A stretch of DNA of 6,270 nt. It comes from a virus. Its lineage: Duplodnaviria; Heunggongvirae; Uroviricota; Caudoviricetes. Below are positions 2,192 through 6,270 of the stretch, in pieces. The translations under genes and the position numbers were made by a program. The stretch lies in IMG/VR virus record IMGVR_UViG_2778261462_000002, positions 1-6,270 of that record; one strand, written 5' to 3'. The stretch's first letter is position 1. The number at the start of each line of letters is the position of its first letter. The notes under the pieces are model-generated. The model did no database searches, was not told where the DNA came from, and worked only from the letters and a program-made list of their open reading frames with translations.

Positions 2192-2571
2192 TGAGGCATA
2201 TATCACCGGAAGAACTGATAGCGCTTCATGATGCGAATATAAGCCGCTACGGCGGCCTGCCGGGAATGTCAGATCCGGGCAGGGCAGAGGCCATTATCGG
2301 GAGAGTCCAGGCCAGAGTTGTGTACGAAGAGATCACCGACCTTTTCGAAGTCTCCGCCACCTACCTGGTGGCTACGGCGAGAGGGCATATATTCAATGAT
2401 GCCAATAAGCGTACCGCGCTAAACAGTGCGCTGCTATTTCTACGCCGTAACGGTATACAGGTATATGATTCTCCCGTGCTGGTGGAACTTGCGGTGGGGG
2501 CCGCAACTGGTGAAATCCCCGTATCTTCAGTAGCGGAAAAACTACGTGAATTATTTGGTCCCAATATTTGA
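2191..2571 (+). CDS. doc: Doc toxin (Fic-fold kinase, death-on-curing), 126 aa.
   Basis: Fic/Doc motif HIFNDANKR (HxFx[DN][AG]NKR) is present; the N-terminus [22 protein letters not shown] matches P1 Doc from memory; translationally coupled to phd. Confidence 0.92.
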
Positions 2572-2574
2572 AAA

Positions 2575-2600
2575 GAAGCCCGCTCAACCAGGCGGGCTTC
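2575..2600. terminator. Hairpin terminator between convergent operons: 9-bp perfect stem GAAGCCCGC / GCGGGCTTC with 8-nt loop.
   Basis: On the minus strand the stem is followed directly by UUUUCAAAUAUU, a good intrinsic terminator for the dre operon. On the plus strand the U-tract is about 15 nt away, so it is weaker for doc. Confidence 0.6.
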
Positions 2601-2654
2601 CTACTATCACTCAATGATTTTTTCTGCTGTCAGCCAGCTAATTCGGTGATGTTT

Positions 2655-3455
2655 TTAGGCGTCAGCATCAGCATCTGCTTCCACATCAGCCACGGCTTCA
2701 TCGGACGGTTCTTCTTTGGCCTGCTCTGCAATCGCCGCACGGCATTTGGCCCTTGCTGTGGCGATTGCTTCAGCACGCACATCATCAGGAATCGTTGACG
2801 TGATATACATATCCAGTTCTTCGGCGCGGAACACTGTTTGGTCCAGATATTCGCGTAGCATCCAGGTAAATTCGAAATCACACGCGATAATCTCTGCGCT
2901 ACCTTCCGCACCATTAGGGAAGTGGATAAACGCTTGTTTGGCTAAACCAATAACACGACATGCAGTAGCATATACAGCAAGCAATAAATTTTCGTTTTCG
3001 CATGAAACGGGCTGGTTTACGCCAGTAATAATGCCATTAATGGCCCGGTCGAACGGCTTGTAGTTCGATATGCGCTCTACACGCCATATCCCCAAAAGAG
3101 AGCCATTACGGAATATGACAGGAGTAACAGCTAATTGAAGCTCACCGATCAGCCGCTGCGCAAATGAATAATTATCAAACAAGCCAATCGGCGGGCAATG
3201 ATATGTCTGCGCCAGTTTGATCAGTTCGTCCTGTGAATACTCTTTATCACGAACAGTGAAGAACATACGTTTGCCTGTCTCACCATTACGCCAGATAGCA
3301 ATCCCTTCCTCTAACAGAAGTTCTTCGTCAAAGCCAAAATAGGCCATAACAGTGCGTTCAATAGTGACTAATGGCAGTGACATATCTGGTTCGATTTCAA
3401 CAACCAGACCGTTACGCAGGCGGTATAAAATACGTTTTGCGTTTTCCGTGCTCAT
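2655..3455 (-). CDS. Hypothetical protein X, 266 aa, with a poly-acidic C-terminal tail (EEPSDEAVADVEADADADA).
   Basis: Start chosen at the ATG at 3455 (MSTENAKRILYRL), 13 nt after the dut stop with AAAGGA upstream. The longer 332-aa ORF-track version would overlap dut by about 200 nt and is rejected. No motif I can assign. Confidence 0.55.
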   Translation of the reverse strand: MSTENAKRILYRLRNGLVVEIEPDMSLPLVTIERTVMAYFGFDEELLLEEGIAIWRNGETGKRMFFTVRDKEYSQDELIKLAQTYHCPPIGLFDNYSFAQRLIGELQLAVTPVIFRNGSLLGIWRVERISNYKPFDRAINGIITGVNQPVSCENENLLLAVYATACRVIGLAKQAFIHFPNGAEGSAEIIACDFEFTWMLREYLDQTVFRAEELDMYITSTIPDDVRAEAIATARAKCRAAIAEQAKEEPSDEAVADVEADADADA

Positions 3456-3468
3456 ATCCTTTCTCTGC

Positions 3469-3963
3469 TTATAACTTTTCGTACTTAAGCTGTGAACGCT
3501 TAATTTCAAAGCGACCTTCCGATGTGCTACCAAAGCCACCAGCACCTCGTTCTGTTTCATCGAGTTCATCAACTTCGACCAGCGAGACTTGTTCCACACG
3601 CTCAAAAATGCCTTGCATGACAGCCATTCCAGGCTTGAGGCAAACGCCTTCACCGCCGGGATCAGTAATCAATTTTGCCATGATTTCACCGCGATAATCG
3701 GAGTCGATAATTCCTACGCAGTTAGCCAGGCGCGTATGTTTTTTGCAGCCCAATCCGGATCGCGGATAGAGTTTCAGACACCAGCCGGGCGGGATCTCCA
3801 TAGCCAGTCCGGTATACACCCACCAGCTTGAGGAAATTGCACCATTGCTATCGACGCATGGTGTTATTTCAACAGCCTCAAAATCCATTGCTGCCGATCC
3901 TGCGGTGGCATAGAACGGCAGTTTTGCACCAGGATGCAGGCGCTTCACTTTTACGTTAATCAT
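3469..3963 (-). CDS. dut: dUTP diphosphatase (trimeric dUTPase), 164 aa.
   Basis: Start at the ATG at 3963 (MINVKVKRLHPGAKLPFYATAGS). dUTPase motifs present: PRSGLG, GIIDSDYRGE, RGAGGFGSTS. The N-terminus aligns with E. coli Dut (..KEFPLPTYATSGSAGLDL..). The start overlaps the upstream gene's stop by 8 nt (ATGATTAA). Confidence 0.85.
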   Translation of the reverse strand: MINVKVKRLHPGAKLPFYATAGSAAMDFEAVEITPCVDSNGAISSSWWVYTGLAMEIPPGWCLKLYPRSGLGCKKHTRLANCVGIIDSDYRGEIMAKLITDPGGEGVCLKPGMAVMQGIFERVEQVSLVEVDELDETERGAGGFGSTSEGRFEIKRSQLKYEKL

Positions 3964-4447
3964 GCTTCTTTGCTCTTTTGGTGAAGGTGTAAATTCGACG
4001 TTTAATATGCGGGGCAGTCGGTACGGATACGTTTGTGGATTCGATAATGCCTTGCTCTTCAAGAGAGCGAACGGCACGCAGGAACTGAGACGCATCGCCG
4101 CCACCGGACAGCCAGAATTTACGGGCGTAAATGCTGCCGTTACGGATAATTTCAGCAACGACACGAGACTGGGTTTGTGTTTCACGATAGGCAAACAGTT
4201 GCCGGGCTTCTTCCGGCGTAATAGCCAGTTGATAGCCTTTCCCCTTATGGGCGCGAATAAAACCAAACGACACCAGGTGTTTTAGTTCCCTGCGCGTAGT
4301 CTCATAACCGTATTCCTGTATCTGGAGATTGAGATCGGCGGGCTTTAGCCATGCTTCCGGCGACTCAGTAAGAAGCGCCAGCAACTTACCGGATAGCTCA
4401 GGGGAGGAAGACGGGTAACAGTTAAGAGATGGGTAATAGTGTTTCAT
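3956..4447 (-). CDS. Hypothetical protein Y, 163 aa, possible tandem winged-helix DNA-binding protein.
   Basis: ATG at 4447 with AAGGGGG SD 6-7 nt upstream; 4-nt ATGA overlap with Z's stop. Segments ETTRRELKHLVSFGFIRAHKGKGYQLA and SQFLRAVRSLEEQGIIES look like wHTH recognition regions; this is a composition-level call only. Confidence 0.55.
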   Translation of the reverse strand: MKHYYPSLNCYPSSSPELSGKLLALLTESPEAWLKPADLNLQIQEYGYETTRRELKHLVSFGFIRAHKGKGYQLAITPEEARQLFAYRETQTQSRVVAEIIRNGSIYARKFWLSGGGDASQFLRAVRSLEEQGIIESTNVSVPTAPHIKRRIYTFTKRAKKHD

Positions 4448-4788
4448 TTGCGCCCCCTTACTGGATAATGAGAGCGGGCATCAACCGGAGCAATGAATCC
4501 GGTTGTAGGGCGGGAAAATACGAGATCAATCTTCTCGGTCATGGCGCGATAGTTTTCCTGATAGTGGGCCAGGAGTTTTTCAGCAGCAATGACGGTTACT
4601 CGCCGGACGTAGCTTTCAGCTTCGCCCAGGTTTGACCATTTCTTTTCGAGGGTAAGTACAGGTACGGTCTCAAGCCCTGTCATGATTCCGAACACCACGA
4701 CAGCCTCGCCGCGCTTAACGCCAGCAGCAAAGGTTACGGTGTAACCGTCAACCGTGAAACGCCTTGATTCCGTGATACGACTCTGCAA
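4444..4788 (-). CDS. Hypothetical protein Z, 114 aa, with a putative TTG start.
   Basis: The first start codon after the in-frame stop at 4816-4818 is TTG at 4788, with GGGGG 4 nt upstream. The first internal ATG is codon 36, so the start is uncertain. No recognisable motif. Confidence 0.45.
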   Translation of the reverse strand: MQSRITESRRFTVDGYTVTFAAGVKRGEAVVVFGIMTGLETVPVLTLEKKWSNLGEAESYVRRVTVIAAEKLLAHYQENYRAMTEKIDLVFSRPTTGFIAPVDARSHYPVRGRK

Positions 4789-4860
4789 AGTACCCCCAGA
4801 AAAAACAGGCGTACTTTACAGTAAAATGCAGTGTTAAAAAAGGGTGTTAGAAATTTAATC

Positions 4861-5889
4861 TCATGAATCCATGAGGCGGCTATTGGCACCTGCTGTCACA
4901 CCGCCACGACGAAGATAACGCATCAGTGTTTCGGGCTTCTTCCATGTACCTTCCTGCATAATTTCAACCAAAGACACCTGTTTTTCAGCCATATCTATGG
5001 CGGCACCAACACGCGCACTGTGGCCTGTCCACGTCCGGTAACGGCCTTTATTGGGGGTGGCATCACTCTTACCCAGCAGCGCCCAGGCGTCACTGAAAAT
5101 CTTCTCCATCGCGGGCGCGGTTAATGGCGTGGTGGTGATCCGCGCTTTGTTGCTCCGGTGTACTGGCGGGAAAAGTATCGCATCCGGGTGATCACGTAGT
5201 CCGGACGCGTCCAGCCAGTCATTGAGAACCGCAGTTGTCCGGCGGGAGAGCACCTTATCAAGTCCGGCGGCGGTCGTGATGGTTTTGGTGTGGGATACGT
5301 GAAGCGTTACAGTGTCACCAGTCTGTTCCAGATCGCGAACACGCACGCGGGACATTTCAGCCATACGCAACAGGGTATTGTAGGCCAGGAACAGAAAAGC
5401 CCGGTTGCGCAGATCCACCAGCCTGTCAGAGCGGGAGAGCAGCACGTCGAGCAGTTTCAGGTCATCCCAGCGCAGGGGCACTGCCTGGCCTGTGCGTTCG
5501 CCTTTTTCGGTTGCAGCTTCGCGCCGGATGCGCCGCATCGCCAGGGATACGCTTTTGTCATCAGAGAGTTGCGGCAGTCCGCATTGTGACAACAGCATAT
5601 TGAGCATGGCGTAATGCTTTTCAATGGTGGTTGAAGCCAGATCCGCATCATGCAGTTGAAGCAGGTATTCGCGGGCAGCTTCCGGGGAGATCGGAAACCA
5701 CGCAAGACCACGAGCGTGGCACCATCGCGCCCAGGAGTGAAAGACCAGGCGCAGATCGCGCAGTGTATTAGGTGAGTAAGCGCCCTGGTCATTAAGGAAC
5801 TGCATGAAATTTTTGGCGGCTTCCTGGTACTCAGCACCAATATCACGAAGAAACATGCCAGAATTACCGGAGATAATAAGTTTACTCAT
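4861..5889 (-). CDS. dre: Cre-family tyrosine site-specific recombinase, Dre-like, 342 aa, with the catalytic set intact.
   Basis: ATG at 5889 with AGGTGA SD. Aligns along its length with P1 Cre as I recall it: SVSLAMRRIRRE vs AVSLVMRRIRKE; DLRNRAFLFLAYNTLLRMAE vs DIRNLAFLGIAYNTLLRIAE; HTKT vs RTKT; WTGHSARVGAAIDMA vs WSGHSARVGAARDMA; and the C-terminal W...MRYLR carrying the Tyr nucleophile. A rox-like site lies 152 bp upstream. Confidence 0.88.
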   Translation of the reverse strand: MSKLIISGNSGMFLRDIGAEYQEAAKNFMQFLNDQGAYSPNTLRDLRLVFHSWARWCHARGLAWFPISPEAAREYLLQLHDADLASTTIEKHYAMLNMLLSQCGLPQLSDDKSVSLAMRRIRREAATEKGERTGQAVPLRWDDLKLLDVLLSRSDRLVDLRNRAFLFLAYNTLLRMAEMSRVRVRDLEQTGDTVTLHVSHTKTITTAAGLDKVLSRRTTAVLNDWLDASGLRDHPDAILFPPVHRSNKARITTTPLTAPAMEKIFSDAWALLGKSDATPNKGRYRTWTGHSARVGAAIDMAEKQVSLVEIMQEGTWKKPETLMRYLRRGGVTAGANSRLMDS

Positions 5890-6041
5890 GTAATCATTTC
5901 ACCTCTATAAATTGGTGTCGCTACGCGAAAAAACAAAAAATGACAGGCTAGTTATCCGTGAGAATTTAAAATTTAAGCCCTTGATTCGAACCATGACTTT
6001 TTGAGCCTGTCAATACTGATCGTTTGATCATTATTATATAC

Positions 6042-6073
6042 TAACTTTAAATAATGCCAATTATCTAAAGTTA
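6042..6073. other. rox-like recombination target: TAACTTTAAATAAT-GCCA-ATTATCTAAAGTTA (14-bp inverted arms, 4-bp asymmetric spacer).
   Basis: Arms match as inverted repeats at 13 of 14 positions (A vs G at arm position 9). The sequence differs from rox as I remember it (TAACTTTAAATAATGCCAATTATTTAAAGTTA) only at 6065, C for T. Flanking C6041/G6074 extend the palindrome. It sits upstream of the Cre-family gene, as loxP does for cre. Confidence 0.7.
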
Positions 6074-6143: not shown

Positions 6144-6157
6144 GGCACTGTTGCAAA
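6144..6157 (+). repeat. IS26 left terminal inverted repeat, GGCACTGTTGCAAA.
   Basis: Exact 14-bp IS26/IS6-family terminal IR as I recall it, located 63 bp before the transposase ATG. Confidence 0.85.
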
Positions 6158-6206
6158 TAGTCGGTGGTGATAAACTTATCATCCCCTTTTGCTGATGGAG
6201 CTGCAC

Positions 6207-6270
6207 ATGAACCCATTCAAAGGCCGGCATTTTCAGCGTGACATCATTCTGTGGGCCGTACGCTGGTACT
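6207..6270 (+). CDS. tnpA: IS26 transposase Tnp26 (DDE transposase, IS6 family), N-terminal 21 codons only (3'-partial).
   Basis: Translation MNPFKGRHFQRDIILWAVRWY is the IS26 Tnp N-terminus as I recall it. Confidence 0.9.
   Translation, partial: MNPFKGRHFQRDIILWAVRWY

Follow-up and report, generated by a model that had tools for sequence, protein, structure and literature searches.

P1-like phage-plasmids have long served as laboratory tools (transduction, Cre/lox, Dre/rox), and among Enterobacterales they are carriers of resistance genes. In bacteriophage P1, the isaA gene (for 'IS1 insertion-associated gene A'; YP_006486, phrog_2326) is located after ssb in an operon which is repressed by C1 through a C1 operator, and it borders on IS1. 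Phage D6 contains a counterpart, orf113 (YP_009914790), which is annotated as 'similar to P1 gene isaA' and is the terminal gene of the dre operon, beside phd-doc. The annotation of phrog_2326 is 'function unknown', every copy of the IsaA family which we examined is labelled 'hypothetical protein' or 'unknown function', and the searched literature contained no functional assignment for IsaA, for phrog_2326 or for the accession numbers. P1 isaA was scored as non-essential in a CRISPRi screen (PMC10695390).

We have now analysed a related locus in a stretch of 6,270 nucleotides (the window) from a tailed phage. The initial annotation had proposed a protein of 266 aa, named X, at 2655–3455. The open reading frame is real at exactly these coordinates and is located on the minus strand: it starts with ATG, its translation ends in EQAKEEPSDEAVADVEADADADA and its stop codon occupies 2655–2657. 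The plus-strand reading of the same segment contains many in-frame stops and was rejected. The coding sequence is backed by the ORF list and translation, a profile match, identity to relatives and dN/dS. Three observations support the start codon: a purine-rich, RBS-like tract, GAGAAAGGA (3457–3465, minus strand), read from the sequence within the 13-nt dut–X spacer, the aligned N-termini of homologues and the identical RefSeq call on plasmid pK91 (hypothetical protein WP_001743161.1). The dN/dS value of 0.16 against D6 orf113 indicates that X is under purifying selection overall.

Protein X is almost certainly the D6-lineage orthologue of P1 IsaA, an accessory protein of P1-like phage-plasmids. 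The phrog_2326 profile matches residues 4–259 of X with an E value of 2.6e-112, X is 71% identical to D6 orf113, the positional orthologue (70% by tblastn), and tblastn gave 43% identity to P1 IsaA (E 1e-60, 85% of the length), the homology extending over practically all of the body. All 28 divergent members of the family match phrog_2326 and no other PHROG. X and P1 IsaA are of similar length, both consist of an acidic body with a short C-terminal tail that is acidic as well (ELQENSTEEVESD in P1 IsaA), and both are encoded by elements of the P1 phage-plasmid family, whereas the sequence and length of the tail differ and the N-lobe of P1 IsaA contains an insertion of 8 residues. The common architecture, as apparent from two alignments and the tail statistics, is a folded body of ~240 aa followed by a variable C-terminal extension. 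The earlier statement that X lacks any recognisable motif is correct as regards Pfam, NCBIfam and PADLOC, in which no match to X was found, but not as regards PHROGs, since X is a clear member of phrog_2326. Pfam searches at E up to 1 with X and the 28 divergent relatives gave scattered single noise matches only, the best hit of a PDB sequence-profile search with X had an E value of ~1 or worse, which is noise, and the sole Foldseek match of X in BFVD was a fragment of P1 IsaA itself. Judging from these comparisons, X is not an orphan but a further member of a known, uncharacterised family.

The IsaA family was found almost only in P1-like phage-plasmids. Its genes occur in 474 PLSDB plasmids, and the carriers of the homologues are plasmids of 80–100 kb, mostly non-mobilizable, together with contigs containing pacAB-c1-cre. 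A genome-wide scan of species representatives detected only two loci, both of the P1 type in the E. coli group.

A predicted leftward operon, dre-o114-Y-dut-X, all genes of which are on the minus strand, ends with X. The first gene (4861–5889) encodes a Dre-like tyrosine recombinase of the Cre family (Pfam Phage_integrase; 90% identity to D6 Dre). It is followed by o114 (4444–4788; 114 aa, D6 orf117, phrog_1968), which lies beside the recombinase also in distant P1-like elements, by Y (3956–4447; 163 aa, D6 orf116, phrog_6669) and by the dUTPase gene dut (3469–3963; PF00692 and NCBIfam dut, with RefSeq coordinates taken from pK91), which is directly upstream of X and co-oriented with it. A σ70-like sequence TTGGCA-16-TATAAT upstream of dre (6033–6060, minus strand), a consensus match only (11/12), is a candidate promoter of the dre-to-X operon, and an intrinsic-terminator-like hairpin with a T-run, found by terminator scan and in the sequence ~60 nt past the X stop codon (2578–2593, minus strand), is the predicted end of this operon. 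A rox-like recombination site without assigned strand (6042–6073) agrees with D6 rox in 31 of 32 positions. The window shows synteny to phage D6, as seen for humD, phd, doc, dut, dre and rox; hot and humD are near X, and in relatives also ref. In contrast to isaA, X comes after dut as the terminal gene of the dre operon, and a search around X and dre for a C1 operator of the P1 type gave no match at up to 3 mismatches.

In four distant P1-like elements (Pantoea, Rosenbergiella and two metagenomic ones), an X homologue is located 0.3–2.2 kb downstream of a Cre-like recombinase gene on the same strand. Homologues of o114 (E 1e-13 to 1e-22) are present in three of the four. One element, L003, yielded a homologue of Y (E 3.7e-5), and two more contain positional equivalents of similar size. 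In L006, X adjoins the recombinase gene without o114 or Y, and in the Pantoea element the X homologue is also directly after dut. In most D6-like relatives, X is preceded, at a distance of 6 nt, by a genuine Tad2-like anti-Thoeris gene (PF11195, 81–82 bits; E 2e-20 to solved Tad2 chains). It was found in 6/6 sampled D6-like plasmids outside the lineage of the window and in D6 itself, where this gene (DUF2829) lies between dut and orf113; the window and the Pantoea, Rosenbergiella and metagenomic relatives lack it.

According to the AlphaFold2 model, the body of X is confidently folded into two α/β lobes, both with a predicted dsRBD-like topology. The N-terminal lobe (residues 1–105; 3141–3455, minus strand) consists of a β-hairpin and an α-β-β-β-α module in the AF2 secondary structure. 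At least two N-lobe alleles, ~53% identical, recombine independently of the flanking genes; D6 orf113 carries a different allele, 52% identical to that of X, as well as a shorter tail without the DADADA motif. Since dS between these N-lobes is saturated and dN/dS is 0.17, the divergence reflects old alleles and recombination, with no demonstrable positive selection.

The C-terminal lobe with a long helix (residues 106–243; 2727–3140, minus strand) is the conserved core, as seen in the alignment of 28 members and in the comparison with D6, to which it is 87% identical in total, rising to 100% in residues 201–243. The model of this domain has a pLDDT of 84, and the long helix spans residues 224–248. 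The conserved residues include G118, L120, W124, A160, G170 and the (P/E)ELDxY motif at 212–217. Only L120, W124 and G170 are invariant across the 28 members, the near-invariant positions being mostly G/A/L/Y plus one Asp, and a set of conserved polar residues suggestive of catalysis is absent. The loop GIITGVNQPV (residues 141–150; 3006–3035, minus strand) is conserved in close relatives, with G141, I143, G145, Q148, P149 and V150 invariant in alignment A1. It is modelled with low confidence (pLDDT ~61, below 50 at 141–145) and may be a binding loop.

Several structural relationships were considered for the body. Matches to PD-(D/E)XK nucleases (Sen34, Hjc, VRR-NUC, FAN1) were rejected because no conserved D...(D/E)xK motif occurs in the 28 members; these matches are also missing from the best 60 of the C-domain search. 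The idea that the two lobes, both dsRBD-like, represent an internal duplication was rejected as well (hhalign probability below 1%). Two PDB entries, 1r7l (a Bacillus cereus prophage protein) and 4pup (a Burkholderia protein), are 13–17% identical to X in sequence, with no detectable sequence homology, and are ~110 aa long versus 266 aa. Both are uncharacterised, so no function can be transferred from them to X.

The reading which we tentatively prefer, as one possibility, is that X is a non-enzymatic, acidic protein which binds or inhibits a host factor stoichiometrically. X would probably work without catalysis by binding its target stoichiometrically, and this target may most likely be a host protein handling nucleic acids or nucleotides; a role in anti-defence or host takeover is suggested with similar caution. 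The functional or scaffold core would be the C-terminal lobe with its residue W124, loop GIITGVNQPV, ELDxY motif and helix 224–248, the N-lobe with its deeply diverged, recombining alleles would tune specificity, and the acidic tail would be a dispensable, lineage-variable appendage, an electrostatic or solubility helper and not the active element. A non-enzyme is indicated by the lack of a Pfam, NCBIfam or PADLOC family and of a PDB sequence match, and by conserved residues which are mostly G/A/L/Y. The CRISPRi result for P1 isaA supports an accessory status. The Tad2-like neighbour in the D6 clade and the distance of only a few kb between P1 isaA and the dar anti-restriction genes point to an anti-defence setting, and purifying selection together with a variable N-lobe versus identical residues 201–243 agrees with the proposed division of tasks. 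On the other hand, the guilt by association with Tad2 is confined to the D6 clade, a role in DNA metabolism would agree just as well with the neighbouring genes, ssb in P1 and dut in D6-like elements, and the likeness of X to inhibitor structures is at the noise level for a small common fold. The steady position beside the recombinase gene and the number of PLSDB plasmids look more like a 'core-accessory' gene of the lineage than patchy anti-defence cargo. The anti-defence or partner-binding role put forward by the initial annotation is nevertheless plausible on grounds other than the tail, since profile, PDB and structure searches (BFVD included) found no confident match to a housekeeping or other enzyme, the acidic body is conserved family-wide and relatives have the Tad2-like neighbour.

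A more far-reaching version, which we regard as rather unlikely, is that the IsaA family is an unrecognised anti-defence or host-takeover family near-universal in P1-like phage-plasmids. The C-lobe would then inhibit or scaffold, the N-lobe would pick the target, e.g. a nuclease of a defence system or an enzyme that depletes nucleotides, and the tail would be an electrostatic decoy; in D6-like elements, X and Tad2 would form a two-gene anti-defence cassette. If true, such a function would matter for the host range of phage-plasmids and for P1-based delivery vectors; if not, the IsaA family is an ordinary conserved accessory gene. What has been gained is the placement of X in a defined family, together with a two-lobe model of high confidence, the conserved core, the operon position, the mosaic alleles and, for most D6-like relatives, a Tad2-like anti-defence gene as neighbour. 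The finding is modest: the original observation was correct, the family was known but uncharacterised, and the tail is not its key feature.

Rather unlikely, too, is a role of X as a DNA- or RNA-metabolism factor, whose dsRBD-like modules would bind duplex nucleic acid or a replication or repair protein, and which would act with SSB in P1 or dUTPase in D6-like elements while the phage-plasmid undergoes early replication or repair. The gene order speaks for it: P1 isaA is directly after ssb in the operon controlled by the C1 operator, X is directly after dut both in the window and in the distant Pantoea element, and hot, humD and, in relatives, ref are nearby. The α-β-β-β-α fold of dsRBDs (PF00035) is also present in the model, and type B dsRBDs bind proteins. 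However, no dsRBD HMM matched X, and the lysine-rich motif was not seen, in sequence or model, in the helices corresponding to the RNA-binding helix of dsRBDs. In place of the basic RNA-binding surface, X is strongly acidic: its pI is 4.6 for the full-length protein and 5.0 for the body, and the body net charge is negative (−3 to −16) in 28/28 members, so X is a poor fit to direct nucleic-acid binding. Moreover, the neighbouring DNA-metabolism gene differs by lineage and is missing in L004–L006, and P1 isaA is non-essential for lytic growth.

We consider it quite improbable that X belongs to a recombinase-linked module (dre-o114-Y-X), in which it would act as a modulator of Y or of the Cre-like recombinase in the maintenance, cyclisation or regulation of the plasmid-prophage. 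The earlier idea of X as an antagonist of a regulator, with Y as the candidate partner, falls under this reading. The recurrent location of X homologues downstream of the recombinase gene in the four distant elements, three of them with o114, is in line with such a module. Y is a probable tandem winged-helix protein, as suggested by sub-threshold MarR, PadR, Rrf2 and TrmB matches recurring in 4/4 positional equivalents, and the basic surface of a DNA-binding protein might serve as a docking site for an acidic one. The alleles, however, do not support co-evolution: in the plasmids L011 and L013, Y is 99% identical, yet the N-terminal half of X is only 53–54% identical. Co-variation was therefore rejected, the N-lobe alleles of X and the alleles of Y assorting independently. 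P1, P7, RCS47 and SJ46 contain IsaA, but Y and o114 were not detected there and isaA is ~20 kb from cre. P1 IsaB did not match Y or o114 and was rejected as a homologue of either. Given the independent assortment and the P1-type phages with IsaA and without detectable Y, it is unlikely that X requires Y as an obligate partner, and co-evolution of the two is not supported. The arrangement in L006, with X beside the recombinase gene and neither o114 nor Y, also weakens the module, as does the expression of Dre, Cre and Panto alone as recombination tools in heterologous hosts (PMC4957104).

The leading idea of the initial annotation, a DNA-mimic anti-restriction protein acting via its poly-acidic tail, is highly improbable. 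The low-complexity tail EQAKEEPSDEAVADVEADADADA (residues 244–266; 2658–2726, minus strand) has a net charge of −9 and contains 10 D/E in the last 23 residues versus 43 D/E in all 266 (hypergeometric p = 0.001 for a fixed 23-residue window), while 6% of shuffled X sequences reach 10 D/E in some 23-residue window. The acidity is real, yet only modestly above chance. In favour of a working tail, homologue tails of at least 13 aa are net-acidic or neutral, and relatives carry an anti-defence gene in the same slot. Acidic-tail loss in orthologues is nevertheless partly seen: tail length ranges from 1 to 82 aa across the 28 homologues, with 3 aa or fewer in 4/28, where the tail is essentially absent, and 12 aa or fewer in 9/28. 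It varies even between near-identical alleles (four more residues in P0001), no tail sequence is conserved among the 28, and the tail evolves under relaxed constraint. Residues 252–266 are predicted to be disordered (pLDDT below 50) and not to form a rigid charge array. The tail is a variable, disordered add-on and not a conserved working part, and the argument for anti-restriction drawn from it does not stand. X was compared with the acidic phage-encoded inhibitors T7 Ocr, ArdA, T7 Gp1.2 and the Acb4/Tad2 sponges. It has neither a sequence-profile match to the DNA mimics Ocr and ArdA (Pfam E up to 1, X and 28 relatives) nor a structured conserved acidic array or a fold likeness to a known mimic, and P1, according to its annotation, already counters restriction with the Dar system.

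It is just as doubtful that X is a nucleotide-signal sponge, a functional analogue of Tad2 or Acb4 holding a second messenger of a defence system in a pocket of W124 and the conserved loop: X adjoins Tad2-like genes in D6-like plasmids and possesses a conserved aromatic residue and a conserved flexible loop, but it has no profile or fold match to Tad2 (PF11195) or Acb4, its likeness to Acb4 is that of a generic small α/β fold, the basic residues R128, R167 and K173, invariant in the close alignment, are not conserved in the 28-member alignment, and the nucleotide sponges known to us are small (~90–150 aa) oligomers, unlike the 266-aa X. Apart from the Tad2-like genes and one gene for a Tlde1-domain protein, the cargo genes that flank X in relatives gave no Pfam or PADLOC identity.

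The X gene was confirmed at 2655-3455 and lies on the minus strand, where the reverse complement gives an ATG start, 266 amino acids and an end in ...AIAEQAKEEPSDEAVADVEADADADA before the stop. A plus-strand reading of this interval was ruled out, since many stops break the frame. A 13-nt spacer with a purine-rich GAGAAAGGA tract separates the ATG from the stop of the dUTPase gene upstream; roughly 60 nt past the X stop, a terminator scan of the sequence found a GC-rich hairpin with a T-run behind it. In the Salmonella Typhi plasmid pK91, RefSeq annotates the identical ORF (hypothetical protein WP_001743161.1). The dN/dS of X (0.16) indicates purifying selection and hence a functional gene.

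By sequence comparison, X can be assigned as a new allelic member of the known, uncharacterised P1 IsaA/phrog_2326 family. It matches phrog_2326 (E 2.6e-112, residues 4-259), shares 70-71% identity with phage D6 orf113, labelled 'similar to P1 gene isaA' in the D6 record, and 43% with P1 IsaA, and all testable features of the family were found in it. The initial annotation of X as having no recognisable motif thus holds for Pfam, NCBIfam and PADLOC, none of which gave a match, but not for phrog_2326. P1 IsaA is itself annotated as 'unknown protein function', and a literature search found no published function for the family. Among 1.84 billion cluster representatives, only 41 proteins matched the family profile at E up to 1e-3, and a scan of one genome per species (185,579 species) gave 2 loci. 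Homologues occur in 16 phage records and in 474 PLSDB plasmids, which are nearly all from Escherichia or Salmonella, were typed as non-mobilizable in 455 cases and, among the records listed, are mostly 75-105 kb in size. The divergent relatives named come from Klebsiella, Raoultella, Enterobacter, Pantoea, Rosenbergiella, Serratia and Atlantibacter (contigs of 84-91 kb). All 28 divergent members tested matched phrog_2326, and no Pfam match recurred among them. The family is common across an important group of mobile elements and has no close structural relative in the PDB and BFVD libraries searched; nothing in our findings on X would surprise a specialist.

The window comes from a phage-plasmid of the P1 family that resembles phage D6. 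On its plus strand, DUF1382 and Ead/Ea22 lambda-type genes (248-1299; E 3e-29 and 1e-27, respectively) are followed by humD (1508-1897), phd and doc. The presence of lambda-type genes upstream of humD in a P1-like backbone explains the many Stx-converting and lambdoid phage matches in the DNA search. The closest records are Salmonella Typhi plasmids of about 92 kb and an E. coli plasmid, with 99.8% identity over 2400-4900. HumD is 95-99% identical to its counterparts in D6 and the D6-like plasmid L011 but shares only 75% identity with that of pK91, a plasmid that matches the window at 99.8% over 2400-4900; this places a recombination breakpoint between humD and doc, and the region is a mosaic. 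The window ends in an IS26 terminus (6144-6270), which consists of the inverted repeat GGCACTGTTGCAAA (6144-6157) and the first part of the transposase gene and matches the IS26 of pK91 at 100% identity. About 2 kb present in pK91 is absent between rox and IS26 (junction 6143/6144), including the gene at the c1 repressor position, which is annotated as 'phage repressor protein' in L011 and L012. The element from which the window derives has thus probably been truncated by IS26 and lost its repressor, leaving a defective phage-plasmid.

X closes a minus-strand block of co-oriented genes, in which it is preceded by dre (Dre-like tyrosine recombinase, 4861-5889), o114 (4444-4788; phrog_1968, no Pfam match), Y (3956-4447; phrog_6669) and dut (3469-3963). 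The junctions overlap or are very short, and we infer co-transcription from dre to X. A rox-like site upstream of dre (6042-6073, TAACTTTAAATAATGCCAATTATCTAAAGTTA) matches D6 rox at 31 of 32 positions, with one mismatch in one arm. It is overlapped by a strong minus-strand match to a sigma-70 promoter (6033-6060, TTGGCA-16-TATAAT, 11/12) which points into dre, so the recombinase could control its own operon by binding at rox. The four divergent homologues inspected (Pantoea, Rosenbergiella and two metagenome contigs) all lie in P1-like contexts with a Cre-like recombinase 0.3-2.2 kb upstream on the same strand; in three of them, this recombinase comes after pacAB- and c1-like genes, and in the Pantoea element a dUTPase lies directly upstream of the X homologue. 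Homologues of o114 were found in three of the four contexts and a detectable Y homologue in one. The gene o114, conserved directly after the Cre-like recombinase in P1-like elements from Pantoea, Rosenbergiella and metagenomes (E 1e-13 to 1e-22), is an uncharacterised recombinase-linked gene. P1 differs in that isaA is located directly 3' of ssb, downstream of the C1-controlled operator Ossb, and abuts IS1, a few kb from the dar anti-restriction genes.

In D6 (L001, 6823-7283) and in all six D6-like plasmids sampled outside the window's own lineage (L011-L016), dut and X are separated by a DUF2829 gene whose end is 6 nt from the start of X. Its product matches PF11195 at 81-82 bits (cut-off 25 bits) and the solved Tad2/ModTad2 chains at E 2e-20, which solidly supports its prediction as a Tad2-like (anti-Thoeris) protein. 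These proteins occur in forms of 146 and 216-225 aa, and Pfam gave no match to the N-terminal part. The window lineage (pK91-type) lacks the gene and has only a 13-nt dut-X spacer (3456-3468). The slot between X and doc also accepts cargo: the Salmonella Concord plasmid L016 carries an extra 364-aa ORF (5255-6349) which overlaps the end of the X orthologue and matched nothing in Pfam or PADLOC.

The AlphaFold2 model of X (22-sequence alignment) is confident (mean pLDDT 85.4, pTM 0.81). An N-terminal lobe (about residues 9-85) consists of a beta-hairpin and an alpha-beta-beta-beta-alpha unit; the second lobe (about residues 96-217) has another such unit followed by two more strands and short helices, and a long helix spans residues 224-248. 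Residues 1-5, 141-145 and 252-266 (the tail) are of low confidence. No evidence for an origin of the two lobes by duplication was obtained with hhalign, and neither PDB sequence-profile search nor Foldseek on predicted viral structures found relatives other than P1 IsaA itself. The bare topology is common to X and dsRBD proteins, whose other testable defining features were not found in X. A PD-(D/E)XK nuclease identity was rejected on the same kind of comparison. Close relatives share 37 invariant columns, including the loop G141-I-I-T-G-V-N-Q-P-V150. Across the 28 divergent members only L120, W124 and G170 are invariant and Y11, G41, G118, A160, L214 and D215 nearly so; the conserved residues are mostly glycine, alanine, leucine and aromatics, plus one Asp. 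Since this alignment contains no conserved polar constellation and no enzyme family was matched, we infer that X is a binding or scaffold protein, not an enzyme.

X is a mosaic with an allelic N-terminal part. Against D6, residues 1-105 show 52% identity and saturated synonymous divergence, whereas residues 201-243 are 100% identical (dS 0.36). This points to old N-lobe alleles shuffled by intragenic recombination; positive selection was not demonstrated. The likeliest reading, still a tentative one, is that X, made from the accessory end of the recombinase operon, would be a non-catalytic, acidic binder of a host factor that acts on nucleic acids or nucleotides, neutralising or redirecting that factor. 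It draws on the missing catalytic signatures, the conserved acidity, the non-essentiality of isaA in a P1 CRISPRi screen (PMC10695390), the presence of a Tad2-like neighbour in D6-like elements and the existence of N-lobe alleles. Against it speak a synteny of unusual stability and a distribution among P1-like elements close to that of a core gene. The DNA-metabolism neighbours ssb and dut suit a role as a replication or repair accessory factor almost as well; this second reading seems less likely.

That X acts inside a dre-o114-Y-X module is more doubtful. Between the window and D6, no proteins differ more than X and Y (71% and, lowest, 65% identity, vs 89-100% for those of dre, dut, humD, phd and doc). 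Recurrent sub-threshold winged-helix matches (MarR, PadR, Rrf2 and TrmB) in two regions were obtained for Y as well as for its positional equivalents in distant elements, and thus Y is plausibly a tandem winged-helix DNA-binding protein, as would suit the regulator-antagonist role proposed for X with Y as its obvious partner. However, in L011 and L013 a Y with 99% identity to that of the window occurs together with an X N-lobe of only 53-54% identity, so the X and Y alleles assort independently. By tblastn of 50,697 phage records, Y and o114 were found only in D6 and not in P1-type phages, although a very remote P1 homologue of the fast-diverging Y could be missed; IsaA is present in P1, P7, RCS47, SJ46 and others. 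Both results argue against Y as an obligate or co-evolving partner of X. According to PMC4957104, Dre, Cre and Panto are used as recombination tools expressed alone in heterologous hosts, which argues against X as a required recombinase cofactor.

The strongly acidic C-terminus noted in the initial annotation is real, with 10 D/E among the last 23 residues (hypergeometric p = 0.001 for that fixed window), and statistically not dramatic, as an equally acidic 23-residue window occurs somewhere in 6% of shuffled X sequences. X as a whole has 43 D/E vs 26 K/R and a pI of 4.6, or 5.0 without the tail. Counted from the alignment column after X residue 243, the tail of the 28 members is 1-82 residues long (3 or fewer in four members, 12 or fewer in nine), with unrelated, low-complexity sequences rich in D/E/A/P/Q and a net charge from -14 to +3; all tails of at least 13 residues are net-acidic or neutral. 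Even near-identical alleles differ: P0001 is four residues longer, so the DADADA tract of X follows a 4-codon gap in the alignment. Against D6, dN/dS is about 0.57 for the tail (only 16 aligned codons) vs 0.09 for residues 106-243. The net charge of the body is negative in 28/28 members (-3 to -16). Members of the family thus repeatedly carry a dispensable C-terminal extension that is disordered and usually acidic; the DADADA tail itself is particular to a subclade, and what is conserved is an acidic folded body. Reasoning about function from the tail is thereby undermined, although the wider proposal of an anti-defence or partner-docking role may still hold for reasons other than the tail. 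A tail-based DNA mimic is very improbable, given a tail so variable, so short in four members and of low confidence in the model; the testable defining features of DNA mimics were not found in X. A nucleotide sponge is scarcely to be expected either, the testable defining features of Tad2/Acb4 sponges being absent from X.

In the Pantoea element L003 (6696-7346), the dUTPase adjoining the X homologue carries a low-complexity C-terminal extension too, some 70-85 residues long and rich in A/T/S/E/D. Disordered tails may thus be a habit of the operon or element and not specific to X.
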